Origin: a virus
Taxonomy: Duplodnaviria; Heunggongvirae; Uroviricota; Caudoviricetes
Strand: one strand, 5' to 3'
Length of the DNA: 11,068 bases
IMG/VR virus record: IMGVR_UViG_2700989545_000014
A model generated the notes under the pieces. The model did no database searches and was not told the origin of the DNA. It saw only the letters and a program-made list of their open reading frames with translations. Each line of letters begins with the position of its first letter. Positions within the stretch are counted from its first letter, which is position 1. A program made the translations under genes and the position numbers. Of this stretch, positions 251 to 11,068 are shown in pieces.

Positions 251-531
251 TTTTCCTCCTGCAATCCACCAACAGGTACCTGCGCTAATCTATCTTTTTA
301 ATCTGACAACATCTTGGGAAAAGGCAAATTCGTCAGATTTACTGTTTTTCTGCTGCCTCGAATGCCGATGTCTGAAGCACTGATAAGAGTTCTATCTCTT
401 TGATATAGATCTTTTTTTTGATGAATTGCACGACATATTATCGTTATGACACCTTCTTGTTAAAGGTATTGTACTCCTCATCTCGATTTTATGATGTGGG
501 CTATGATTGGTTAGTAATAGAGTGTATCGGT

Positions 532-813
532 ATGCGATGTGGTTTATTAATGGCAATCTGCCTTTGTTTAGTATCTTTTAGCGGATATGCAGCAACAGGA
601 AAGTCTGATGCTCAGATCAAAAAAGAAATAATTAAAGAATCCATTGAATCTTATCCAGGCAATTGTGCGTGTCCTTATAATCATGCAAGGAATGGTAGTA
701 GATGTGGTGGACGCAGTGCATATAGCCGTAATGGAGGGTATGACGTGGTATGTTATGAGGGTGATGTTACCGATGAAATGATCCGGCAATGGAAGCAGGA
801 GAATGCTGAGTAA
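532..813 (+). CDS. Small secreted Cys-rich protein of unknown function (93 aa with predicted signal peptide)
   Basis: The ORF track frame is 418..813. The signal-peptide-like segment MRCGLLMAICLCLVSFSGYA-ATGKSD (basic n-region, hydrophobic core, A-x-A site) begins at the ATG at 532, so 532 is the preferred start. The mature part has 5 Cys (GNCACPYNH...CGG...VVCYEG). The region is markedly AT-rich compared with the phage genes. The Shine-Dalgarno is weak (GAGTG). Confidence 0.5.
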   Translation: MRCGLLMAICLCLVSFSGYAATGKSDAQIKKEIIKESIESYPGNCACPYNHARNGSRCGGRSAYSRNGGYDVVCYEGDVTDEMIRQWKQENAE

Positions 814-879: not shown

Positions 880-922
880 CCAAAAAGAAAACCCGCAGTT
901 CTTACGCTGCGGGTTTGTTGTT
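880..922. terminator. Bidirectional rho-independent terminator
   Basis: Stem cccgcag (892-898) / ctgcggg (907-913) with an 8-nt loop. It is flanked by tttgttgtt on the plus strand and ttttcttttt on the minus strand, so it can end both the 532..813 gene and the minus-strand hok transcript. Confidence 0.6.
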
Positions 923-1001
923 CATGTCTGTGAGATAGGGTGCCACTTCAGCCAACCTTAGCAACCGATTGACGGGGGATTGCTCCCCCGTCGCGGTTTC
1001 C

Positions 1002-1142
1002 TTACTGCTTACACTGTAAGAACGCCGCAAACTCCGCTCCCCAGAAGCTCATCCGTATTTCACACAGCGAACCGTGTAGCATCCAGATGATGAGGATTAC
1101 CGTCACGCAGAACGTGATGGCCGTAAGCGATTTTTGCGACAT
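1002..1142 (-). CDS. hok: Hok/Gef-family type I toxin (46 aa membrane peptide)
   Basis: Hand translation of the minus strand gives MSQKSLTAITFCVTVILIIWMLHGSLCEIRMSFWGAEFAAFLQCKQ*. It has an N-terminal hydrophobic helix plus the conserved Hok core SLCEIR and the AAF(L) C-terminal motif seen in Hok, Gef, RelF, PndA and SrnB. AAGGAG lies 8 nt upstream of the ATG. It is absent from the ORF track because it is under 60 aa. Confidence 0.7.
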   Translation of the reverse strand: MSQKSLTAITFCVTVILIIWMLHGSLCEIRMSFWGAEFAAFLQCKQ

Positions 1143-1177
1143 AGCGCTTGCTCCTTTGTTGGAGAGGCGCTAACCTA

Positions 1178-1273
1178 TCACTTGCTTAAGGTAGATATGT
1201 TAGGGCCTCGGTTAAACAGAAATGTTTTCCGGGGCCTTTCCACATCTGGCCTTCGGGTATTCCCTCCGACCAT
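1178..1273 (-). CDS. Short upstream (mok-like) reading frame in the hok leader
   Basis: The 31-codon frame MVGGNTRRPDVERPRKTFLFNRGPNISTLSK* shares the FLFNR-P peptide with the remnant copy at 146..250. Unlike classical mok it stops about 35 nt before the hok start and has no clear Shine-Dalgarno, so its function is uncertain. Confidence 0.25.
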   Translation of the reverse strand: MVGGNTRRPDVERPRKTFLFNRGPNISTLSK

Positions 1274-1333
1274 CAGCCGAAAGGCACCCGCGCGTAATCT
1301 ATCGCTTTTTTGTTACTCCGGCAATTCTGCCTG

Positions 1334-1594
1334 TTAATTCTGAGGTAAAGGCAAACTCATCTGATTGTTTCCCCTGTGTGAAGCTGGCAGCTCATGCCAC
1401 GGGATACCTTCTGAAGAGTGAACGCCGGAGGTGTGTTTTGATGTGAATTTATGGAAAGCTTCCAGTGTTGAGAAGCATACGCCGCATTCCAGGTTGTTAC
1501 ACTGGTAATACTTTTGCCGCACGGTGTTTGAATCATTTTCAGGACGACTGGTGCGGATACGGGCAGATGCGCCACAAAGCGGACAACGGAACAT
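1334..1594 (-). CDS. ogr: Ogr/Delta-family zinc-finger late-gene transcriptional activator (86 aa ORF, C-terminus atypical)
   Basis: The N-terminus MFRCPLCGASARIRTSR...YYQCNNLEC has the CxxC...CxxxxC zinc-finger layout and matches P2 Ogr (MFHCPLC...). AAGGGAGG lies 5 nt upstream of the ATG at 1594. The ORF is longer than P2 Ogr (72 aa) and its last ~28 codons lie in DNA homologous to the hok-like repeat. Confidence 0.8.
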   Translation of the reverse strand: MFRCPLCGASARIRTSRPENDSNTVRQKYYQCNNLECGVCFSTLEAFHKFTSKHTSGVHSSEGIPWHELPASHRGNNQMSLPLPQN

Positions 1595-1636
1595 AGCGAC
1601 CTCCCTTAACGTGGTGCTGCTGCTATTCTAAGTTGC

Positions 1637-2746
1637 TCACTCTGTTTCTGCTATCCATTCCGAGATTTTTGCCTCAAGCTCAAGCTGCGTGGTAAAGCCG
1701 CTGTTATCGATGGTGTGCTCGGCTTTTGCAATAATCCAGTCCTGATTATCAATCTCGCTTTTAAATCCTGTTACCGTGCCATGCATTTCGGGGTAGAGTT
1801 CTGCACGACCACATGCCAGCGTGATGGAGAATGATGCGGCTCCGCGTTGTAGCTGCTGCCACTTTGCCGCCGCTGCGCGTCTTGCTGCCTGCTCGTTCTG
1901 ATAAGTCTTGCGTAACACAAACACATTGCCTTCCGCGCCTTCCATATAATCACCTTCACGGCTGCTGCTTTTCTCCTTTTTGGGTTTTGGCGGTTTACGG
2001 CGTTTCACGCTGACTTTTTTCTTTTTCCCGTAATTAAGATCAAGCCAGTAGGCGCGTACCCCCGTATACGCCTCGCGGTCAGCAATACGGAACTGATGGC
2101 GATCGCCGCTGCTGCGTGTAATGGCGAACGAGGGCAACGGCTGGCCCTGTGCGTTCACGCCACCACCTGGCATGATGAATAACAGATTGCCGCTTTTTAC
2201 CGTGGTGATTGCGCCCAGCATTTCCGCCATGCGCGTAAGGAAGGACATATCGCTTTCTTCGGTCTGGTCGGCGTGGTCGATTTCGATATCCATCAGCATT
2301 TCGCTGATTTGCGGTTTCAGACCGTACCGATGAGCGATGGCAGATACCACGCGCTCAACGGTCACATCATGCCAGGACACCTCACGTTTAACGTTAAATT
2401 CATCCCGAAAATCTGCGCTTCTGGCTGAAACAGTCAGCCTGTCCGGCGGTCCTTCGTGAGCGATTTCATCAACAATGTAAGTGCCTTTTTCTGTCAGCGG
2501 TTCTCCTTTCCAGCCAATGAGAACCGTCAGGCGCGCGCCCCGTGGCGGTAGCTGCAACTGACCATCCGCATCATCCAGCGTGATGGTGAGCTGGTCCGCC
2601 TCAAATCCCCGGTTGTCGGTCAGTGACAGGCTCATCAGGCGCTCTGCCACGCCTGACAGCGTTTTACCCTCCGCGAGAATATCAAAATCCGGCATTTTCA
2701 CGGGGTCTGTGCCCTGACTGAGCAATTGCATGGTGGTATCGGTCAT
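1637..2746 (-). CDS. D: P2 gpD-family tail protein (phage late control gene D protein)
   Basis: The 369-aa product contains SLSLTDNRGFEADQL...LTVLIGWKGEPL, typical of the gpD family. The start is placed at the ATG at 2746 (MTDTTMQLL), which is preceded by GGGAGGG; the track ORF extends to 2878 without a ribosome-binding site. Confidence 0.85.
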   Translation of the reverse strand: MTDTTMQLLSQGTDPVKMPDFDILAEGKTLSGVAERLMSLSLTDNRGFEADQLTITLDDADGQLQLPPRGARLTVLIGWKGEPLTEKGTYIVDEIAHEGPPDRLTVSARSADFRDEFNVKREVSWHDVTVERVVSAIAHRYGLKPQISEMLMDIEIDHADQTEESDMSFLTRMAEMLGAITTVKSGNLLFIMPGGGVNAQGQPLPSFAITRSSGDRHQFRIADREAYTGVRAYWLDLNYGKKKKVSVKRRKPPKPKKEKSSSREGDYMEGAEGNVFVLRKTYQNEQAARRAAAAKWQQLQRGAASFSITLACGRAELYPEMHGTVTGFKSEIDNQDWIIAKAEHTIDNSGFTTQLELEAKISEWIAETE

Positions 2747-2903
2747 CTGTTCCCTCCCTGTGCGGCATGGTCGCATGTGCGTGCGGAGGGGGTTACTGCT
2801 TTTTGTTGTCGCCGTGGCGGGAGAACGGCGCAGGGGTGAGATTACGCACGTGGTGGGTGATGATTGTTGCCGAATCATTTAACGGATACAAGGGGCTGAA
2901 GCT
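2747..2903. promoter_or_regulatory. Divergent intergenic region between D-ogr and the FI operon (expected late promoters)
   Basis: This 157-bp non-coding spacer lies between two divergent starts. By analogy with P2 the FI operon should have an Ogr-dependent promoter here, but no clean TGT-N12-ACA dyad was found by eye. Confidence 0.3.
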
Positions 2904-4088
2904 ATGAGTGAAACTCGTTTTCATGGTGCCCGTGTTACGGAAAATACCGACCTGGTAACAGCGATTAACGATGTTGATTCCAGCGTTATCGGTATCGTGG
3001 CAACGGCGGATGATGCGGACGCGAAGCTGTTCCCGCTGAATAAGCCCACACTGCTGACCCGCGTCAATGACGTGCTGGGAAAATGCGGGACAACGGGGAC
3101 GCTTTATCGTGCGCTTAAGGCCATCGCAGACCAGGTGAGCACAAAGGTGATCGTCGTTCGCGTGGCTGAACACAAAGAAGAAGACGGAAAGACGCAGGAT
3201 CAACTGGTTATCGGTGGTTCTGAGGATGACGGCAGCTATACGGGGATGTATGCGCTGCTTGTTGCAGAGCAGGATGAAAGCATCGGATACCGTCCGCGTA
3301 TTCTGGCCGCGCCGGAGCTGGACACGGAGGCTGTAACAAAATCCCTGTGCGTGATTGCAGGTAAACTGCGCGCGTTTGTGTATGCCTCATGTCACGGCTG
3401 TAACACGATGGCTGAGGCGATTACCTACCGCCAGAAATTCAACGAACGTGAGGTGATGCTCTTATGGCCGGACTTCATCGCCTACAACCCGAAAAGTGGC
3501 AAAAACGAAACGTTCCCCGCGCCTGCTTATGCGTGCGGCCTTCGTGCGTACATTGACCATGAGCAGGGCTGGCACAAATCGCTGTCCAACGTTCCGGTTA
3601 AAAATGTGCTGGGAATGTCCAGGCATGTGTTCTGGTCGTTGCAGGCCGAAGACAGCGATGCCAATAGCCTCAACAACAAAGAAATCACGACCATTATTCG
3701 TCGCAACGGGTTCCGCTTCTGGGGCAACCGCACACCGGAAACGAACGCCTACATCTTTGAGGTGTATACCCGAACCGCACAGGTGCTGGCTGATTCAATT
3801 GCGGAAGCGCAGTTTGAAACCATCGACAGTCCACTGACACCTGCGAATGTGAAGGATGTTATCAGCGCCATCAGGGCAAAACTGGATTCGCTGGTTACTG
3901 CCGGGAAACTGATTGGTGCGGAGTGCTGGTATGACGTGGTGGATAACGGCACCACGAATTTACGTCAGGGACGTGTGCGTATTCGCTACAAATATACGCC
4001 TGTTCCCCCGCTGGAAGACATGGAGCTTTACCAGACGTTTACTGATGAATTCTTTGGTCCCGCATTTGCGGTGCTGGGAGGTGCCTGA
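2904..4088 (+). CDS. FI: Contractile tail sheath protein (P2 gpFI family)
   Basis: The 394-aa product aligns by eye with P2 FI along its length (FPLNKP, KLRAF, AYRQ-F, WPDF, EQGWHK-LSNV, IRRNGFRFWGNRT, YTRTAQV, YTPVPPLE). AAGGGG lies 7 nt upstream of the ATG. Confidence 0.9.
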   Translation: MSETRFHGARVTENTDLVTAINDVDSSVIGIVATADDADAKLFPLNKPTLLTRVNDVLGKCGTTGTLYRALKAIADQVSTKVIVVRVAEHKEEDGKTQDQLVIGGSEDDGSYTGMYALLVAEQDESIGYRPRILAAPELDTEAVTKSLCVIAGKLRAFVYASCHGCNTMAEAITYRQKFNEREVMLLWPDFIAYNPKSGKNETFPAPAYACGLRAYIDHEQGWHKSLSNVPVKNVLGMSRHVFWSLQAEDSDANSLNNKEITTIIRRNGFRFWGNRTPETNAYIFEVYTRTAQVLADSIAEAQFETIDSPLTPANVKDVISAIRAKLDSLVTAGKLIGAECWYDVVDNGTTNLRQGRVRIRYKYTPVPPLEDMELYQTFTDEFFGPAFAVLGGA

Positions 4089-4600
4089 TGGCTGTACCAA
4101 AACATCTTCGCTTTTTTACGTTGTTTGTGGATGGTGAAAACGAAGTGGGTAAAGTGACATCCGTCACGCCGCCCAAACTGACGCGCAAAACCGACAGCTA
4201 TCGTGGTGGTGGCATGATGGGGGCGGTAAGTATTGATCTCGGTCTGGACGACTCCGCGCTTGATGCGAGTTTTGTCATGGGGGGAGCTGTTCGTGCGCTG
4301 TTCCTTAAATATGGCGGCACGATTGACGGCACGCTGCTGCGTTTTGCGGGTGAATACTACACCGATGCAGAAAGCGATCTGTATGAAATCGAGATGCGCG
4401 GGCGTGTGACGGAAATTGATATGGGGGAAGCCAAACAGGGCGAAGCCACATCACACACTTACGCTGTCAAAAACACCTACTACAAGCTGAGCGTTAACGA
4501 TCGCCCGCTGTGGGAAATCGACCTGTTGAACCACATCTACCGGAAGGACGGCAAGGACATTGTGCCTGACCGTATCCGTTCCGCGCTTGGGCTTGGCTGA
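4088..4600 (+). CDS. FII: Tail tube protein (P2 gpFII family)
   Basis: The 170-aa product carries VTPPKLTRKTDSYRGGGM, the LGLDD motif and MRGR-EID-GE-KQGE, matching P2 FII. Its start overlaps the FI stop (ATGA), indicating translational coupling. Confidence 0.9.
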   Translation: MAVPKHLRFFTLFVDGENEVGKVTSVTPPKLTRKTDSYRGGGMMGAVSIDLGLDDSALDASFVMGGAVRALFLKYGGTIDGTLLRFAGEYYTDAESDLYEIEMRGRVTEIDMGEAKQGEATSHTYAVKNTYYKLSVNDRPLWEIDLLNHIYRKDGKDIVPDRIRSALGLG

Positions 4601-4612
4601 TAAGTAATATGC

Positions 4613-4633
4613 AGGCGGCGCAGTGCGTCGCCT
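4613..4633 (+). other. Intergenic GC-rich hairpin between tube and chaperone genes (possible attenuator or RNA-processing site)
   Basis: An 8-bp stem aggcggcg / cgtcgcct with a 5-nt loop, followed by only two T residues, so it is not a strong terminator. Confidence 0.25.
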
Positions 4634-4655
4634 TTGACTGAAAAGGAGACAACTG

Positions 4656-5030
4656 ATGAAAGACATCGATACTGAAACCCGGAATAACACCGTGGCGGAT
4701 GATGTGACGGCAGGTGAGGATATGGCTGTCGAACGTGGCGTAAAACTGACCCGACCAATTGAGCGTGGTGGCGAAAAAATCACGTATGTGGAGATCACCG
4801 GGGCTATTGAGCAGGCTGGATCCCTGCGTGGTCTGTCGCTGTCTGATGTGCTGAATCTGAAAGCGGATACCATGTTTACGCTGTTGCCTCGCGTGACCTC
4901 GCCACGACTGGATGAAGTGATGATTAAAAAAATGTCGTCACGCGATTTTATTCAGTTGTGCGCAGTGGCTGTAAATTTTATGAGCGAGCCAGACTCTGGC
5001 GCGAAGAGCGTGCAGGAGACGGCAGCGTAA
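4656..5030 (+). CDS. E: Tail assembly chaperone gpE
   Basis: The 124-aa ORF has AAGGAG 7 nt upstream and sits between the tube and tape-measure genes, where P2 and lambda (G/GT) carry the chaperone pair. A slippery heptamer lies near its 3' end. Confidence 0.8.
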   Translation: MKDIDTETRNNTVADDVTAGEDMAVERGVKLTRPIERGGEKITYVEITGAIEQAGSLRGLSLSDVLNLKADTMFTLLPRVTSPRLDEVMIKKMSSRDFIQLCAVAVNFMSEPDSGAKSVQETAA

Positions 5031-5194
5031 TCACTCTGGTGTGCTTTGAGCACATCGAAGATCTGGTGGCGGATATTGCCGCCATTTTTAACTGGTCGCC
5101 CGCCGAAATCTTCATGATGACGCCCGGCGAAGTGGTTAGCTGGCGTGAGCGGGCGGCACTTCGCAGCGGGAATGCAGATAATGAAGACTCTTGA
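4656..5194 (+). CDS. E+E': gpE+E' chaperone fusion produced by programmed -1 ribosomal frameshift
   Basis: The -1 frame (track ORF 4958..5194) overlaps the end of E. A canonical X_XXY_YYZ heptamer A_AAT_TTT lies at 4973-4979 in the E zero frame, and slipping there continues as ...CKFYERA... in the E' frame. The arrangement is conserved in contractile-tail phages. Confidence 0.6.
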
Positions 5195-7988
5195 TATCCG
5201 GGTCGCTTTCAGCGCCGTTGACAGGCTGACCCGGCCTGCCGAAAACGCCCGCCGCCTGATGGGGCAGTTTGGTGACTCCATCCAGCGAACGCAGGGGGCG
5301 ATCAAAAATCTCGAGCGTCAGGCGCGTTCATTTGAGCGCGCCCGTGACGCTGTCAGTAAAGCGGATGCTGGCATCGTGAAAGCACGACGCCAGCTTAACG
5401 CCCTTAATCAGTTACAACGCACGGGTACAGTGCTCAGCGAAAAACAACAAAAGCTGATGCAGCAGTTAAGCACCCGGCTTGAACGCCTGAATGAATCGCG
5501 CACACGGGAAATTCAGAAAATGCGGGAGCTTGGCGGAGAGCTGAAACGCCACGGCATTTCCCTGACAGGCAGCGATAACACCATCCAGCAGGCCATCAGA
5601 CGCACCGAACAGTACAACAACCAGCTTGAACGCGAACGGCAGGCGCTTGCGCGTGTAACGCGGGCGCGTGAGCGGTATTCGCGCGCGCAGGAAACCGCGG
5701 GAAAACTGAAAACAGGTGGTGCGCTGGCAATTGGTGCTGCAGCGGCTGGCGGCTATGCCGCCGGGCGTTTTTTGCAGCCTGCGATCGGGTTCGGCAAAGA
5801 GATGTCCCGCGTTCAGGCACTGACGCGAATCGACAAAAACAGCCCGCAGTTTAAGGCGCTGCGTGAGCAGGCGTTAAAACTTGGTTCTGAAACACAGTTT
5901 ACTGCGAGTGATGCCGCCAGTGGGCAGAGCTTTCTGGCAATGGCTGGTTTTACTCCGCAGGCCATTCAGGCCGCATTGCCCGGTGTTCTTAATATGGCGC
6001 TGGCAGGTGGCGTCGAACTCGGCGAGACGGCTGATATAGGCTCCAATATCCTCACACAGTTCAACCTGACAGCCGATCAAATGGACCGGGTTGGCGATAC
6101 GCTGACAGCAGCATTCACCCGGACCAATACTGATTTACGCGCGCTGGGCGAAACCATGAAGTATACCGGTCCGGTTGCCGCAAAACTTGGTATCAGTCTT
6201 GAAGAAGCGGCGGCCATGGCCGGGATGCTTGCCAATAATGGTCTTCGCGGAAGCGATGCTGGTACGGCCATGCGCGCAAGTCTGTCCCGCCTTGCATCAC
6301 CGCCAAAAGCTGCGGCTGATGCACTGAAAGAGCTGGGGGTGTCAGTTGCTGACGCCAGAGGCAAAATGCGCCCGATGGAGGATGTGCTGCTTGATCTCTA
6401 TAAGGCGACACAAAAATACGGACAGGTGGACCAGGTCTCCTTCTTCAAGGACATCGCCGGAGAAGAGGCGTTCGTTGGTTTGCAGACGCTTGTTGCGGCG
6501 GCTGGTTCAGGAGAACTGCAAAAACTGACCAGAGAATTGCAGGGGGCAAGGGGAGAGGCCGATCGCGTTGCAAAAGTAATGGCCGATAATCTTGATGGAG
6601 ACCTGAAAAATCTCGACAGCGCATGGGAAGGTCTTCGTATTCGCATCAGTGATCTGGTTGACGGTCCGCTGCGTTCTGTCACGCAGTGGCTCACGCGGGT
6701 GCTTGAAAAAATCACCTCGCTGGCGCAGGCCCATCCGGTACTGACGCGCCAGCTACTGATAGCAGGCGGTGCGTTGCTGGCAATGACTGCAACGATTGGC
6801 TCGTTGTCGCTGGTTATTGGGGTGCTTTACGGGAAGCTGGCCACCTTGCGTCTTGGTTTCGACATTCTTACCCGGTCAATGAATGTCATCAGGGTGTTGC
6901 CTGCGCTGTGGGGAATGGTGACGGGTTCTGTTTCTTTGCTGGGTGGCGCTATCGGGGCGCTGTTCAGTCCGGTTGGTCTTATCGTGGCTGCGCTTGCCGG
7001 AGCTGCCGTTCTTATCTGGAAATACTGGGATCCCATCAGGGCATTTTTTGCCGGGGTGTTCAGCGGGATTATGGAAAGGCTGACCCCGTTGCGTGAAACC
7101 TTTGAACGGTTTGGCCCTGTTTTTGACGCAATCGGAAGCGGGATCAGCCTGGTGTTTAACTGGTTTAAATCGCTGTTGTCACCGATGGAGTCCAGCAAGG
7201 AAACGCTGGATAAATGCACCAGTGCTGGCGAGGTATTCGGTAACGTTCTTGGCGGTGCGTTACAACTTGTTCTGACACCTGCAAAAATGCTACTGGATAC
7301 GCTGGCGTGGATACTTGAAAAACTTGGTGTCCTTCCGGATGAAGCGGAAAGGGCGCGCAAGAAAATCGAAGACGCACAGCGTGCGGCCATTCTTCAGGAC
7401 AAGGTTGCCTTGCTTCAGGGGGACCTGGCGAAAATCAATCCGCCGAAGCCTGTGGAAAATGGCAATGGCACCGGAGGTGATAAACCCAAAGACAACAAAC
7501 CGCTCACAGACAGCAATACCGGGACGCTACGCAGACTCAGCAAAATTGCTGATAACACAGGTAAGCTGGTTGATGAGACGAAAAAACGCATTGGCCCCGG
7601 CGATATTGTCTTTAAGAACCTGCCCCGCGCACTTGCTGTTCGTGGGGAGTGGCAGGAGCGGAAGATTGCGCAGGTCAGTAAGCCTGCCCCCGCAATTAAT
7701 ATCACACCCGTGGTCTCGGCTCCGCTGCCTCCGGCGCTGGTCCCTGTTGTTGCGGCCAGCTCCCGCCCGGTGGCGGAGGCCATACGATCGCCAGTGGCAT
7801 CAGTTCCTGCAACTTCCCGTAACCGGGAGCCTGCTGTCTCCGGATTTTGCGGTGAAATTCATGTTCATCTGCATAACGTTGTTACGCAGAATCCCCGCGA
7901 ACTGGCGAAACTGGTCGGTGAAATGGTCAGGGCAGAGATGGAACGGCGCGCCCGTGCCGGACGTGGCAGTTTTTACGATAAAGATTGA
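5181..7988 (+). CDS. T: Tail tape measure protein (P2 gpT family), about 935 aa
   Basis: A long ORF directly after the chaperone pair. It has a coiled-coil-like, Q/R/E-rich N-terminal third, internal hydrophobic segments and a Pro/Ala-rich C-terminal region. The start is placed at the ATG at 5181 (GGGA 9 nt upstream); the track frame opens at GTG 5145 inside E'. Confidence 0.85.
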   Translation: MKTLDIRVAFSAVDRLTRPAENARRLMGQFGDSIQRTQGAIKNLERQARSFERARDAVSKADAGIVKARRQLNALNQLQRTGTVLSEKQQKLMQQLSTRLERLNESRTREIQKMRELGGELKRHGISLTGSDNTIQQAIRRTEQYNNQLERERQALARVTRARERYSRAQETAGKLKTGGALAIGAAAAGGYAAGRFLQPAIGFGKEMSRVQALTRIDKNSPQFKALREQALKLGSETQFTASDAASGQSFLAMAGFTPQAIQAALPGVLNMALAGGVELGETADIGSNILTQFNLTADQMDRVGDTLTAAFTRTNTDLRALGETMKYTGPVAAKLGISLEEAAAMAGMLANNGLRGSDAGTAMRASLSRLASPPKAAADALKELGVSVADARGKMRPMEDVLLDLYKATQKYGQVDQVSFFKDIAGEEAFVGLQTLVAAAGSGELQKLTRELQGARGEADRVAKVMADNLDGDLKNLDSAWEGLRIRISDLVDGPLRSVTQWLTRVLEKITSLAQAHPVLTRQLLIAGGALLAMTATIGSLSLVIGVLYGKLATLRLGFDILTRSMNVIRVLPALWGMVTGSVSLLGGAIGALFSPVGLIVAALAGAAVLIWKYWDPIRAFFAGVFSGIMERLTPLRETFERFGPVFDAIGSGISLVFNWFKSLLSPMESSKETLDKCTSAGEVFGNVLGGALQLVLTPAKMLLDTLAWILEKLGVLPDEAERARKKIEDAQRAAILQDKVALLQGDLAKINPPKPVENGNGTGGDKPKDNKPLTDSNTGTLRRLSKIADNTGKLVDETKKRIGPGDIVFKNLPRALAVRGEWQERKIAQVSKPAPAINITPVVSAPLPPALVPVVAASSRPVAEAIRSPVASVPATSRNREPAVSGFCGEIHVHLHNVVTQNPRELAKLVGEMVRAEMERRARAGRGSFYDKD

Positions 7989-7994
7989 GGAGTC

Positions 7995-8489
7995 ATGGTC
8001 ATGATGATGATCTACGGCATGTTTGTTTTTGAGCTGCGCACATTGCCGCATCAGCAGTTACAGCAAAACAAAAGCTGGCGGCATGTGAAAAATGAACGCG
8101 TTAACCGTTCAGCAAGCTGGCAGTATATCGGTGCAGGTGATGATCGCATTGTGCTTTCCGGCGTGCTTTATCCTGAAATTACAGGTGGCGAAGTGTCGCT
8201 TTCATTGCTGACCACGCAGGCATATACAGGACGGCCCTGGCCTCTGATTGATGGTGTCGGGCAGATTTACGGCATGTATGTACTGACTGAAACGAATACG
8301 ACCCGTTCCGAGTTTGATCGCTACGGTAAGGCGAAAAAGATAGAATTTTCACTGACTCTTGAACGCTGTGATGAGGATTTGCGGGAGCGCCTGCAATCCT
8401 CATCGTTCAGCGATATGTTGTCCGGCTTCAAAGATAAGGTGACATCATCCCTTAATAGCGCGGCCAGCTCAGTTAAGGGGCTGCTCTGA
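7995..8489 (+). CDS. U: Tail protein gpU (P2 U family)
   Basis: The N-terminus ...MMMIYGMFVFELRTLPHQQLQ... and the LSG-L-PE-TGG, WPL-DG-G and SEF motifs match P2 gpU (MMMVLGLFVF...). Shine-Dalgarno spacing favours the ATG at 8001 over 7995. Confidence 0.85.
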   Translation: MVMMMIYGMFVFELRTLPHQQLQQNKSWRHVKNERVNRSASWQYIGAGDDRIVLSGVLYPEITGGEVSLSLLTTQAYTGRPWPLIDGVGQIYGMYVLTETNTTRSEFDRYGKAKKIEFSLTLERCDEDLRERLQSSSFSDMLSGFKDKVTSSLNSAASSVKGLL

Positions 8490-8499
8490 TTTAACGTAT

Positions 8500-8532
8500 G
8501 TCGCCAATTTCCTGATGAAGGTGACTGGCGAC
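8500..8532 (+). terminator. Weak hairpin downstream of U (possible end of the tail operon)
   Basis: gtcgcca (8500-8506) pairs with tggcgac (8526-8532) across a large loop and is followed by moderately T-rich sequence. Structure only. Confidence 0.2.
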
Positions 8533-8565
8533 TTGCTGTTGTATGTCCTTCTCAGAAAATTGTTT

Positions 8566-8594
8566 TTGAATAATAAACAACAGGATTTTATAAT
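8566..8594 (+). promoter_or_regulatory. Near-consensus sigma70 promoter for the cargo gene
   Basis: TTGAAT (8566-8571), a 17-bp spacer, then TATAAT (8589-8594). The predicted transcription start near 8601 is followed by AAGGAG at 8634-8639. Confidence 0.5.
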
Positions 8595-8645
8595 CTCTTA
8601 ACCTTATAACATGTGTGGTCTGAAATAATAATTAAGGAGATTATC

Positions 8646-9218
8646 GTGCTGTCTTACCTAATGGCAATTCACTTTGTTTTATTTGGGAACTCTACTAATT
8701 TAAAAAACTTCTGGAAACATGAAGTAATTCGGCGGAAACGTATGGATATCTGGAGGCTTTTAAGAGAGAAAAAGCAGCGTAACAGGAATTTCCTTTTCTG
8801 GTGGCGGTTGGCTAACGAAATGTATATTAATGGTAATAAATTACATAAGAAAGCAGCCAAGAAGTTAAACAGTAAAATAATTAACAAATTTGGTTGCGAA
8901 ATTGGATTGGGCGCAAATATTGGAAAAGGGTTAACAATTCCCCATCATGCTGGAATTGTTGTTCATTTTGCTGTTGATGCTGGTGAAAATCTGGTGTTAC
9001 GACAGAATACGACCATTGGACAGATAGATGGTGACATACCTGGTTCAAGAGTAAAAATTGGTAGCAACGTTGATATCGGAGCTAATTGTTGCATCATTGG
9101 ATTATCCCGTAAAATTGGGGATAATGTAAAAATAGGTGCAATGTCTTTTATAAATAAAGATATACCATCGAACTGCACATATATAACTAAAAAGAGCGGT
9201 GCTGTATTGTATAAATAG
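8646..9218 (+). CDS. Hexapeptide-repeat (left-handed beta-helix) O-acetyltransferase of the CysE/WcaB/NodL type, prophage cargo (moron) gene
   Basis: The C-terminal two-thirds shows imperfect hexapeptide repeats (GCEIGLGANIGKGLTIPHHAGIVV...VKIGSNVDIGANCCIIG...IGDNVKIGAMSFI) resembling serine and polysaccharide O-acetyltransferases. The start is placed at GTG 8646, 6 nt after AAGGAG; the track frame opens at 8613. The gene is far more AT-rich than the flanking phage genes. Confidence 0.7.
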   Translation: MLSYLMAIHFVLFGNSTNLKNFWKHEVIRRKRMDIWRLLREKKQRNRNFLFWWRLANEMYINGNKLHKKAAKKLNSKIINKFGCEIGLGANIGKGLTIPHHAGIVVHFAVDAGENLVLRQNTTIGQIDGDIPGSRVKIGSNVDIGANCCIIGLSRKIGDNVKIGAMSFINKDIPSNCTYITKKSGAVLYK

Positions 9219-9226
9219 AGTACATA

Positions 9227-9263
9227 AAGCCATCGATATTTCTATCGATGGCTTTTTCTTTTT
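9227..9263. terminator. Strong rho-independent terminator after the cargo gene
   Basis: A 12-bp stem aagccatcgata / tatcgatggctt with loop tttc is followed by tttttcttttt on the plus strand. The tfa stop codon lies at the edge of this element. Confidence 0.7.
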
Positions 9264-9840
9264 ATTGTGGGGCGACTGGCCACTCAATATCTGCTGCTAC
9301 TGTTGTATCAACACGATGCAACAATACTCGATATGTCTTCCATGCAGCCAGTAACGATGTCTCTTCCTCCGTCGCAATATCTAAATCTATAGCATCCTGA
9401 AGTGGTGCAATATGCTCACTGGCTACCTGCATCAGGCTGTTTTTTGTTTCTTCCGCCTCCCTTATCCGAAATAGTTTTTCTGCTTCTGCATCTTTCACCC
9501 AGGATGTGCCGTTCCACTTCTGATACTCTCCATACGGCGACAACCAGGTAACATTTTCCGGTAACGGACCGAGTTCAGAAATAAATAACGAGTCCCCTGA
9601 TGCCACGTCATAAACCGTTTTACCCCGATGGTCTTCAACGAGATGCCACGATGCCTCATCACTGTTGAAAACGGCCACGAAGCCAGCCGGAATATCTGGC
9701 GGGGCAATATCGGTACTGTTTGCAGGCAGACCTGTATGAGGTGAAATGTATGCATCACCTTCACCAATAAACTCATTGGTTCCGGTCAGTAGATTATAAA
9801 TTTTTATGGTCCGTGATTGTTCACTCATTCTGAATGTCAT
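9262..9840 (-). CDS. tfa: Tail fibre assembly protein (lambda Tfa / P2 gpG family)
   Basis: The 192-aa product ([18 protein letters not shown]...[20 protein letters not shown]...) closely resembles, from memory, the TfaR/TfaQ-type chaperones of E. coli lambdoid prophages. Its ATG overlaps the stop of the upstream fibre segment (TAATG). Confidence 0.9.
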
Positions 9841-10226
9841 TATGCAAGCCTCACAATATAGTTAAATGCGATGTTTTTTACGGTGTTTTCTGCGTTCCCC
9901 GTAGCATTAACGGTGATGGTGTGTCCGTGGGGACCAATAATGACAGAATGGGCATGAGCACCAATGCCGATAGTGTGGTTATGGGCACCGATATATACAT
10001 TGTGAGCATGCTCTCCTGCGCTCGACGTGGTACCAGTACCTAACGCAGCGTTATAACCGGCTGATACACCATTCCCCGCGCCAGTGTGACCAACAGGTAT
10101 ATTGTGTGAATGAGCTCCTGCGCTATTTGTGGTTTTTGTGCCGTAATCAAATGAACTGGTCGTTTTAGTACCGTAATCAAACGACGGCCCGGCCACTGGC
10201 GGGTTTGCCCTTAATCGTCCAGCCAC
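9840..10226 (-). CDS. stf: Side tail fibre, distal receptor-binding segment with HxH repeats (out of frame with the upstream fibre ORF)
   Basis: The 128-aa frame contains GAHSH...[37 protein letters not shown]...[11 protein letters not shown], an HxH-rich fibre tip, and a tandem FDYGTKTT repeat. It is translationally coupled to tfa. The frame opens only about 4 codons upstream of the GTG at 10226, so it is not an independent gene extending upstream. Confidence 0.6.
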
Positions 10227-11068
10227 GCATATCAGGGATCACGCCTGACGGATAAGCGGCTGCAAGTTTCGGGTAGGCAGATTTGTCAAAAGTCTGCCCC
10301 TGCATCAGGGCATAACCAGACGGAACGGTATCCGATGGCCACGGGATTGGTGCGCCAGGCGGATAAAACTGCTCTGATGGCGTATAGAGTGAATAAACTG
10401 TACCGTCCGTTAACCCTTCCGGCTTATTAGCAGAATATGCTGGTGACGTATGAATCGTCACGCTGGCATTACTGGTATAATCCCATTGAATATTTACACC
10501 AGTCGCATAATTTCCGATTGCAACGTAAATATCGTAAGTATCACCAGATGTATTGACCCAGGCAAAATTTGTAAACCCTGTCGATGTGCGCTGCCATAAA
10601 GCACCAGTAATCCCCTTCGGATTACCATTACCTGCACGCAAAACAAGTTCAGATATACCTGCCTGTTGAGGTGAACCGACGTTAAATCCAGCGCCACCAA
10701 TCAACGTAATTGAAACAACAGAACTCGCCTGTGGCATGGTTACCGTTGCTAATTTGAACCAACCAGCACCACCGCTGAATGACATTGTTGTTGAGTTAAG
10801 CGTACCAATATCTTTCGGCGTCAGTGTTATATCCGCCGAAAGCGCCTTACCATTCACCTTACGGGCAGAAGGTACCCGACCATTCGCATTGTCATTAGCT
10901 GCTTTCACTGCTTTCGGTGTTGCAGCAAGCGTTTCAGATGTGCTGTTGGTTGCACTACTGAGCTGGACAATTCCTTTTTGTGCCGTCGTGGCGTCCTGTG
11001 CGGTATATTTCCCGTTAGCAAGGTCATAGGCTGCCTTTACCGCCTTTGGTGTTGCCGCCAGCGTTTCT
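10177..11068 (-). CDS. stf: Side tail fibre, shaft portion (5'-partial; continues beyond the window edge)
   Basis: The frame is open from the window edge to the TGA at 10177. It carries the repeated fibre motif [14 protein letters not shown] twice (hand translation of 10900..11068) and a Gly/Thr/Ser/Asn-rich shaft, as shared by lambda Stf, P2 H and Mu/P1 S. The track start at 10908 is an internal GTG. Confidence 0.7.

Follow-up and report, generated by a model that had tools for sequence, protein, structure and literature searches.

The stretch of DNA analyzed here (IMG/VR virus record IMGVR_UViG_2700989545_000014, 11,068 nucleotides [nt]; hereafter the window) is the right-hand end of a P88-like prophage (Xuanwuvirus, Peduoviridae) that lies beside the glyW-cysT-leuZ tRNA genes in Escherichia coli. 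Its tail genes FI to U lie on one strand, and D, the late activator gene ogr and the tail fibre genes lie on the other, and we found that this arrangement is the normal, fixed order of the P88-group lineage, already known from annotated, viable phages classified by the International Committee on Taxonomy of Viruses (ICTV). In addition, we infer that the spacer between D and FI is a bidirectional, Ogr-dependent late promoter (pF/pD) resembling one of phage P2. For this explanation as a whole, i.e., the fixed P88-type order plus the putative bidirectional late promoter, we estimate a probability of about 0.88.

The identity of the prophage was established by megablast against phage records, in which positions 882-8495 of the window matched Escherichia phage P88 at 93.7% identity. 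Phage 500465-2 (over 930-8495) and Shae_phiSM (over 928-8495) matched at 95-96%, and these two, together with P884B11 and PhiR44_2, all members of Xuanwuvirus (Peduoviridae), are 93-96% identical to the window over approximately 930-8495. The chromosome of E. coli OkiPb01713 matched at 99.98% identity; there, a collinear P2-type prophage lies next to tRNA-Leu, and the window is its right end, beginning immediately after the glyW-cysT-leuZ tRNA genes. A tRNA scan of the window itself found none, the tRNA-Leu gene sitting just outside its start. Collinearity with P88 was also judged beyond the window, on 30.3 kb of the OkiPb01713 prophage (locus L003, whose coordinates are cited below), and 74% of this segment is covered by P88 at 94% identity, in collinear fashion. 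The traits that mark Xuanwuvirus, namely, high identity and collinearity with P88 and the order H-tfa > < U-T-E-FII-FI / D-ogr >, were all found here.

Gene identities and strands were taken from the list of open reading frames (ORFs) and a Pfam scan of the window. The genes that bear on the arrangement are as follows.

1334-1594, minus strand: ogr, Ogr/Delta zinc-finger late activator of 86 amino acids (Pfam PF04606, E = 5e-14; annotated as Ogr/Delta in L003)
1637-2746, minus strand: D, tail/baseplate hub protein of 369 amino acids and first gene of the leftward D-ogr unit (Pfam PF05954, Phage_GPD; annotated "phage late control D family protein" at L003 20637-21746)
2747-2903, no strand assigned: divergent D-FI spacer of 157 bp, read from the sequence; the first "breakpoint" of the preliminary description
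2904-4088, plus strand: FI, tail sheath (Pfam PF04984, PF22671, and PF17482)
4088-4600, plus strand: FII, tail tube (Pfam PF04985, E = 2e-45)
4656-5030, plus strand: E-type tail assembly chaperone (Pfam PF10109, weak match)
4958-5194, plus strand: E' frame of the E+E' chaperone, -1 relative to E (from the ORF frames; L003 has a "GpE family" protein at window positions 5039-5194)
5181-7988, plus strand: T, tape measure protein (Pfam PF10145, E = 2e-56; L003 24181-26988)
8001-8489, plus strand: U, tail protein and last gene of the F unit (Pfam PF06995, P2_GpU, E = 6e-39; L003 27001-27489)
9262-9840, minus strand: tfa, tail fibre assembly protein of the lambda gpK/Tfa type (Pfam PF02413, Caudo_TAP, E = 1e-40)
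9840-11068, minus strand: 3' two-thirds of a tail fibre gene that continues past the window end (Pfam PF03406 and PF07484)

By Pfam assignment, a P2-like (Peduoviridae) tail and late-control set is present, comprising FI, FII, the E-type chaperone, T, U, D, and the Ogr/Delta activator. The set FI, FII, E/E', T, U, D, and ogr is shared with P2, with the same Pfam families, and ogr follows D across a small promoter-bearing gap in both. The P2 record, however, places H, G, FI, FII, E, T, U, D, and ogr on a single strand with D as the last gene of the F operon, whereas the canonical F operon is not found in the window, in which the plus strand carries FI to U, the minus strand carries D, ogr, tfa, and the fibre gene, and D-ogr is a separate divergent unit whose D is 49% identical to that of P2. 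Mapping of the genes against the P2 record bore out the proposal of the preliminary description that a single FI-U inversion, with breakpoints in 2747-2903 and 8490-9261, interconverts the two orders. The difference is a fact of gene order rather than a statistical signal, and chance is not at issue.

The same layout is found in annotated phage records. In those of P88 and Shae_phiSM, the baseplate and fibre genes share one strand, the U-T-E'-E-FII-FI block faces them convergently from the other, and D and ogr are divergent from FI; ogr is unannotated in the P88 RefSeq record, yet it was detected by tblastn. The likeness of the window to P88 extends from H and tfa through the convergent U-to-FI block to D, ogr, and hok, and the 157-bp D-FI spacer is nearly identical. 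According to published accounts, P88 was induced from its host and lysed other strains (PMC5285337), and Citrobacter phage ΦSM, the namesake of the Shae_phiSM record, was spontaneously released and formed plaques and lysogens on K-12 (PMC6456863). Since both phages are described as viable, the arrangement is that of working phages.

To survey the order more widely, loci around D relatives were collected, 80 from IMG/VR and 47 from species-representative bacterial genomes, and in each locus ogr, D, FI, FII, E, T, U, tfa, the acetyltransferase, the P88 invertase, I, J, and int were mapped by tblastn. Every informative locus (80 from IMG/VR and about 44 from species-representative genomes) showed the order U< T< E< FII< FI< D> ogr>, and the identity of D in the species-representative loci ranged from 98% down to 64%. 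The genera with this split order include Salmonella, Edwardsiella, Serratia, Erwinia, Pantoea, Mixta, Enterobacter, Kosakonia, Klebsiella, Raoultella, Yokenella, Brenneria, Pectobacterium, Symbiopectobacterium, and Rouxiella, among others. P2, which served as the control, was returned as FI> FII> E> T> U> D> ogr>.

An independent census employed a chimeric U+D protein as the query against 50,697 phage records. U and D were contiguous on the same strand, as in P2, in 391 of the 521 matching records, and these include Peduovirus, phiCTX, Burkholderia, Ralstonia, Wolbachia WO, and Mu-like phages. Among the matches listed, every record in which D exceeded 60% identity matched in its D part only, with U elsewhere, and the full-length U-D matches, at no more than 51% identity, were all contiguous. 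SEN5 (Senquatrovirus), whose annotated order was confirmed, and Klebsiella phage Kp4875-2 (Reginaelenavirus) are among the split-order records; like the window, they have U to FI divergent from a D that is 63-70% identical, and unlike it, they belong to other genera and have other integration sites and other cargo between tfa and U (none in SEN5). The gene orders, and the jump in identity from at most 51% to at least 62% between the two groups of records, suggest one old FI-U inversion that defines a clade. Relative to the order of P2, 186, and phiCTX, such an ancient inversion would have been fixed in the common ancestor of Xuanwuvirus, Senquatrovirus, Reginaelenavirus, and many prophages of Enterobacterales.

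These data settle an either/or question posed in the preliminary description, which had offered a natural variant architecture, with D-ogr as its own leftward unit, and a rearrangement in a decaying prophage. The former was borne out by the identical order in P88, Shae_phiSM, SEN5, and their relatives; the latter fails, given an order conserved in the P88 group (Xuanwuvirus) and also in Senquatrovirus and Reginaelenavirus. Synteny comparison thus found the order to be common in a characterized P2-like subgroup, an outcome that the preliminary description had itself named as speaking against a rearrangement.

D is no longer the last gene of the F operon and therefore needs a promoter of its own. 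In this respect, the P2 record offers a precedent, since it has one activator site (3057-3087) common to the divergent late promoters pP (start at 3016) and pO (start at 3127), each of which starts approximately 55 nt from the centre of the site. The activator sites of P2 read GTTGT-N12-CCA or GTTGT-N12-CAA, and the GTTGT-N12 core also occurs in the D-FI spacer of the window, in which three elements were recognized.

2803-2824, plus strand: Ogr-type activator element TTGTTGT-N12-AGA (TGT at 2807-2809, AGA at 2822-2824, centre at 2815.5; the extended form TTGTTGT-N12-AGAAC runs to 2826)
2859-2864, plus strand: predicted -10 element of pF, GATGAT (at least 72 of 85 spacers have GAnnAT starting 34 nt beyond the 18-mer)
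2767-2772, minus strand: predicted -10 element of pD, GACCAT (63 of 85 spacers have a NANNAT hexamer starting 34 nt to the D side of the element)

The TGT-N12-AGA element was recognized via comparison with relatives and with the divergent O/P spacer: the extended motif TTGTTGT-N12-AGAAC is also present in the O/P spacers of P88, Shae_phiSM, and L003, and SEN5 carries the pattern upstream of V and in its D-FI spacer, there as a perfect TGT-N12-ACA. Conservation was assessed in an alignment of 40 diverse D-FI spacers, and spacing was counted over 85 distinct ones. At least 90% of the 40 spacers keep TTGTTGT, with ACA or AGA as the partner triplet; the other conserved blocks are GCGCGCG on the D side and GAACTCA after the FI-side hexamer. 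At the same 34-nt offset, P2 pO has GAAACT, 7 nt before its mapped start. The geometry of the element and the -10 hexamer therefore equals that of pO, which is what the sequence of an Ogr/Delta promoter calls for, and the start sites given here are predicted from it. Promoters of this class are marked by an upstream element of the TGT-N12-ACA type with partial dyad symmetry, whose centre is about 55 nt from the start, and by a -10 hexamer in the absence of a good -35; Ogr activates them through the alpha subunit of RNA polymerase.

By this geometry, pF would start near 2871 with a 33-nt leader and drive FI-FII-E/E'-T-U, and pD would start near 2760 with a 14-nt leader that carries the Shine-Dalgarno sequence AGGGAGGG and drive D, with read-through into ogr. 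Gene order and motif spacing were observed directly; the proposed pF/pD function draws on motif conservation and on analogy to P2. The window element resembles P2 late promoters in general in its upstream GTTGT-N12 and in a -10 hexamer that starts 34 nt downstream, and it resembles pP/pO in particular in that one central quasi-dyad lies between two divergent late units, with both predicted -10 hexamers at the offset of pO. It differs from pP/pO in serving D and FI instead of P and O and in its right half-site, AGA(AC) versus CCA in P2; moreover, the P2 record has mapped pP and pO starts, whereas promoter function in the window is predicted. The statement of the preliminary description that late-gene regulation must differ from that of P2 is consequently an overstatement, since the spacer holds the same kind of Ogr-type element in the geometry of the pP/pO site, and the regulatory logic of P2 looks to have been reused rather than altered.

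Several points weigh against the proposed architecture. Promoter function and Ogr dependence in P88-like phages are deduced from motifs and by analogy to P2. The window element is TGT-N12-AGA rather than the ideal TGT-N12-ACA, no exact match to which was found in the spacer. For pD, the -10 hexamer GACCAT is weak, and the predicted leader, at about 14 nt, is very short. The spacer alignment contains many close relatives, such that the conservation partly reflects shared ancestry, though D in these loci diverges to 63%. Finally, no paper was found that explicitly describes the inversion, and calling the order known rests on annotated records.

The same features give some room to an alternative in which the order is conserved but D-ogr is transcribed from a constitutive or early sigma-70 promoter, or by means of a separate, unrecognized activator site, and no Ogr site is shared. 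The departure of the element from the TGT-N12-ACA ideal, the weak -10 hexamer, and the short leader of pD are in its favour, and the GCGCGCG block, conserved on the D side, could serve as another operator. A sigma-70 consensus scan found no site on either strand of the D-FI spacer, a result that is expected for activator-dependent promoters and does not discriminate between the two explanations; over the whole window, the generic scan found 11 sites versus 11.7 expected from shuffled sequences and is likewise uninformative for such promoters. On the other hand, the symmetric 34-nt spacing of the hexamers around one conserved element matches the pO side of P2 pP/pO, and 157 bp is too short for two back-to-back Ogr promoters of P2 geometry unless they share a site. 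We therefore regard separate promoters as unlikely, although they are the best-surviving alternative, and favour the shared pF/pD site.

With the shared site, the FI-U inversion would have brought the start of D beside the activator site that lies upstream of the F promoter. We lean, with modest confidence, toward the idea that the inversion owed its fixation to the quasi-palindromic Ogr site of pF, which could at once serve D in the opposite direction, creating pF/pD and a self-reinforcing D-ogr unit. Read-through from pD across D-ogr would keep the late positive feedback that P2 gets by read-through from pF. In P2, ogr also has a promoter in the gap that separates it from D, as placed in the P2 record, and one candidate was read from the corresponding gap of the window.

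1625-1630, minus strand: TAGAAT, candidate -10 element of a promoter specific to ogr, within the 42 nt between D and ogr

About 45 relatives have a conserved xxxAAT hexamer at the same place between D and ogr, and by analogy with P2, ogr probably keeps its own promoter there. In distant relatives (loci L086-L133), the gap also contains a conserved CTCCC-N4-GGGAG hairpin that overlaps the Shine-Dalgarno sequence of ogr and may exert translational control of this gene; in the D-ogr gap alignment, neither the window nor the other E. coli P88-type sequences have the hairpin.

If true, pF/pD would mean that the inversion of a gene block was tolerated by reuse of a symmetric activator site, and it would be a second bidirectional Ogr-dependent promoter built on the plan of pP/pO. 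Within a limited literature search, the architecture is apparently undescribed for P88, SEN4, or the Reginaelenavirus lineage. The P88 paper and the SEN4/SEN5 paper have none of the wording looked for on an inversion or on gene order, the passages of the ΦSM paper on P88, phiSM, P2-like phages, and the invertase leave the arrangement unmentioned, and literature searches for Xuanwuvirus, and for inversion in Peduoviridae, found nothing on the orientation of the F block. The putative bidirectional promoter is only a mildly new element; the split order is how a common prophage lineage is normally laid out, about one complete E. coli genome in four has it, and it is not to be marked as rearranged, decaying, or misassembled. 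Beyond correct annotation, it matters little.

A recent flip of FI-U from a P2-type parent in one decaying prophage is hardly credible by comparison. The present copy is indeed partly decayed, for its tail fibre gene carries an 86-nt frameshifting deletion, and in the closest complete genome the prophage contains an internal stop in a virion morphogenesis gene and an IS3 element. However, that decay sits elsewhere than in the FI-U segment, and the reading frames of FI to U, D, and ogr are all intact. The supposed breakpoint spacer is a conserved regulatory region, and the D-FI junction is present in 1,355 complete E. coli genomes. In addition, the identical order occurs in P88, described as an inducible phage that lyses other hosts, in the Shae_phiSM record, whose namesake is described as plaque forming, and in every relative examined, in many genera and to 64% identity in D; the census by itself already refutes a recent flip.

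We also considered whether FI-U could be a programmed invertible segment of a Gin/Hin-type invertase, such as that of P88 next to U. In P88-type phages, an invertase gene lies exactly at the U-proximal junction and flips the adjacent tail fibre segment, which in P88 is flanked by 65-nt inverted repeats (23822-23886 and 26862-26926) with a gix-like core AAACCNNGGTTT at 26904-26915, and reversible inversion in P88-type prophages has been described (bioRxiv 10.1101/2022.05.07.487787). Against this stands the absence of an invertase gene from the window, by ORFs and tblastn, with none found by tblastn in L003 either. The search for inverted repeats or recombinase sites at the two junctions, which the preliminary description had suggested, came back empty: no repeat pairing 2747-2903 with 8490-9261 was seen among the 25 pairs listed (37 in the window), and no gix/hix-like core AAACCNNGGTTT was found at either window junction, even with 2 mismatches allowed. 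Furthermore, more than 120 loci showed FI-U in a single orientation relative to D. Within the limits of these data, a programmed flip is excluded.

A misjoin of the assembly at 2747-2903 and/or 8490-9261, a concern raised in the preliminary description, is of negligible probability: nothing specific speaks for it, apart from a low-GC cassette at the second junction that is repeated in many prophages and might confuse short-read assembly, and both junctions are contiguous in many independent complete genomes, including one unbroken alignment (10,186 nt, 99.98% identity) that crosses both in the complete OkiPb01713 chromosome, at least 80% of the window in one place in 268 complete E. coli genomes, the D-FI junction (query 2300-3400) in 1,355 of 5,426 such genomes, and the U-acetyltransferase-tfa junction (query 8100-9700) in 495 of the 5,426.

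At the second junction, between U and tfa, the window contains the following features.

8492-8541, plus strand: stem-loop just after U (fold of -22.3 kcal/mol, z = -3.7)
8646-9218, plus strand: serine acetyltransferase-like moron (hexapeptide repeat match; annotated as serine acetyltransferase in relatives)
9226-9255, no strand assigned: hairpin with a 13-bp stem and a T-run, terminator between the convergent acetyltransferase and tfa genes (terminator scan; fold of -19.3 kcal/mol, z = -7.45)

By megablast, the homology with P88 stops at 8495, six bases past the stop codon of U. The cassette that follows is bounded by the hairpins at 8492-8541 and 9226-9255; the acetyltransferase region has a GC fraction of 0.35-0.38, and the AT-rich sequence upstream of it contains TTGAAT-17-TATAAT at 8566-8594, as found in the promoter scan. 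Positions 8654-10797 are 92.6% identical to the stf/tfa/sacF region of phage JL22, and the tfa-stf part (about 9275-10370) is approximately 90% identical to many lambdoid phages. The tail fibre protein is composite, with a P2 H-like N terminus and a lambdoid stf-like C terminus. In the tblastn census, the cassette of the acetyltransferase, tfa, and the C-terminal part of stf was located at the U junction in the window and in about 20 of the 80 IMG/VR loci. P88 differs at this site in having the Gin/Hin-type invertase and the invertible fibre segment beside U, a trait that does not necessarily define the group and that is absent from the window, which instead carries the fixed stf-tfa-acetyltransferase cassette matching lambdoid and other coliphages; SEN5 has nothing between tfa and U. 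The site convergent with U and downstream of the fibre genes is the variable cargo and host-range swap site of the lineage, and its positional counterpart in P2 is the Z/fun site downstream of G. Within the coding sequence of tfa, at 9299-9497 on the minus strand, Rfam reports a full-length match to IS009 (177 bits, E = 4.5e-43), the only match of the Rfam scan of the window; this "family" match probably merely tracks conserved tfa DNA and is irrelevant to the gene order.

The fibre gene next to tfa, in contrast to that of P88-type phages, is frameshifted. Relative to the intact gene of the OkiPb01713 prophage (L003 28840-30843), 86 nt corresponding to L003 29187-29272 are missing after position 10186 of the window, and the gap is flanked by a 3-nt ACG microhomology. 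The 86 nt are intact in all 15 of the best-matching complete E. coli genomes among the matches listed. Their loss shifts the frame before the C-terminal receptor-binding part, which is thereby cut off, and yields the ORFs 10177-11067 and 9840-10226, both on the minus strand. The deletion is either a real inactivation of the present prophage copy or a local assembly error. In the OkiPb01713 prophage, the virion morphogenesis gene with the internal stop is at L003 33266-33901 and the IS3 insertion is at L003 44861-46074, near the partition genes; a 1.9-kb DUF6645 gene (L003 34385-36265), annotated as "phage tail protein," lies between the lysis genes and the first tail gene.

Within the F unit, the heptamer AAATTTT at 4973-4979 is a canonical X XXY YYZ slippery sequence in the E frame and falls in the E/E' overlap (4958-5030); judging from the sequence, it is likely the -1 frameshift site for E+E'.

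The remaining features lie at the left end of the window, downstream of ogr.

418-813, plus strand: low-GC ORF for a small cysteine-rich protein with a signal-peptide-like N terminus (OkiPb01713, locus L003, annotates 19532-19813, equal to window positions 532-813)
889-916, no strand assigned: G+C-rich hairpin with T-runs on both strands (terminator scan; fold of -16.3 kcal/mol, z = -3.65)
1002-1142, minus strand: toxin gene of the hok/gef family, prophage cargo at the end of the leftward unit (Hok/Gef annotation at L003 20002-20142)

The hok gene is directly downstream of ogr and is retained in P88, where it is annotated as "MokW-like host killing." Rfam reported no Sok-type antisense RNA near it at the gathering score. 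The hairpin at 889-916 is likely the terminator that closes the D-ogr-hok side, and a second hairpin was found near hok, at 970-993. The 418-813 ORF lies past tRNA-Leu and ahead of position 882 or so, where P88 homology begins, and the end-of-prophage cargo on this side varies among P88, Shae_phiSM, and the present prophage. Between the secreted-protein ORF (532-813) and the terminator at 889-916, and hence outside the D-FI spacer, the near-palindrome TGTGCCGTTAACGGTACA at 846-863 is the only exact TGT-N12-ACA in the window; with one such site found versus three expected, its occurrence is at chance level and may mean nothing.

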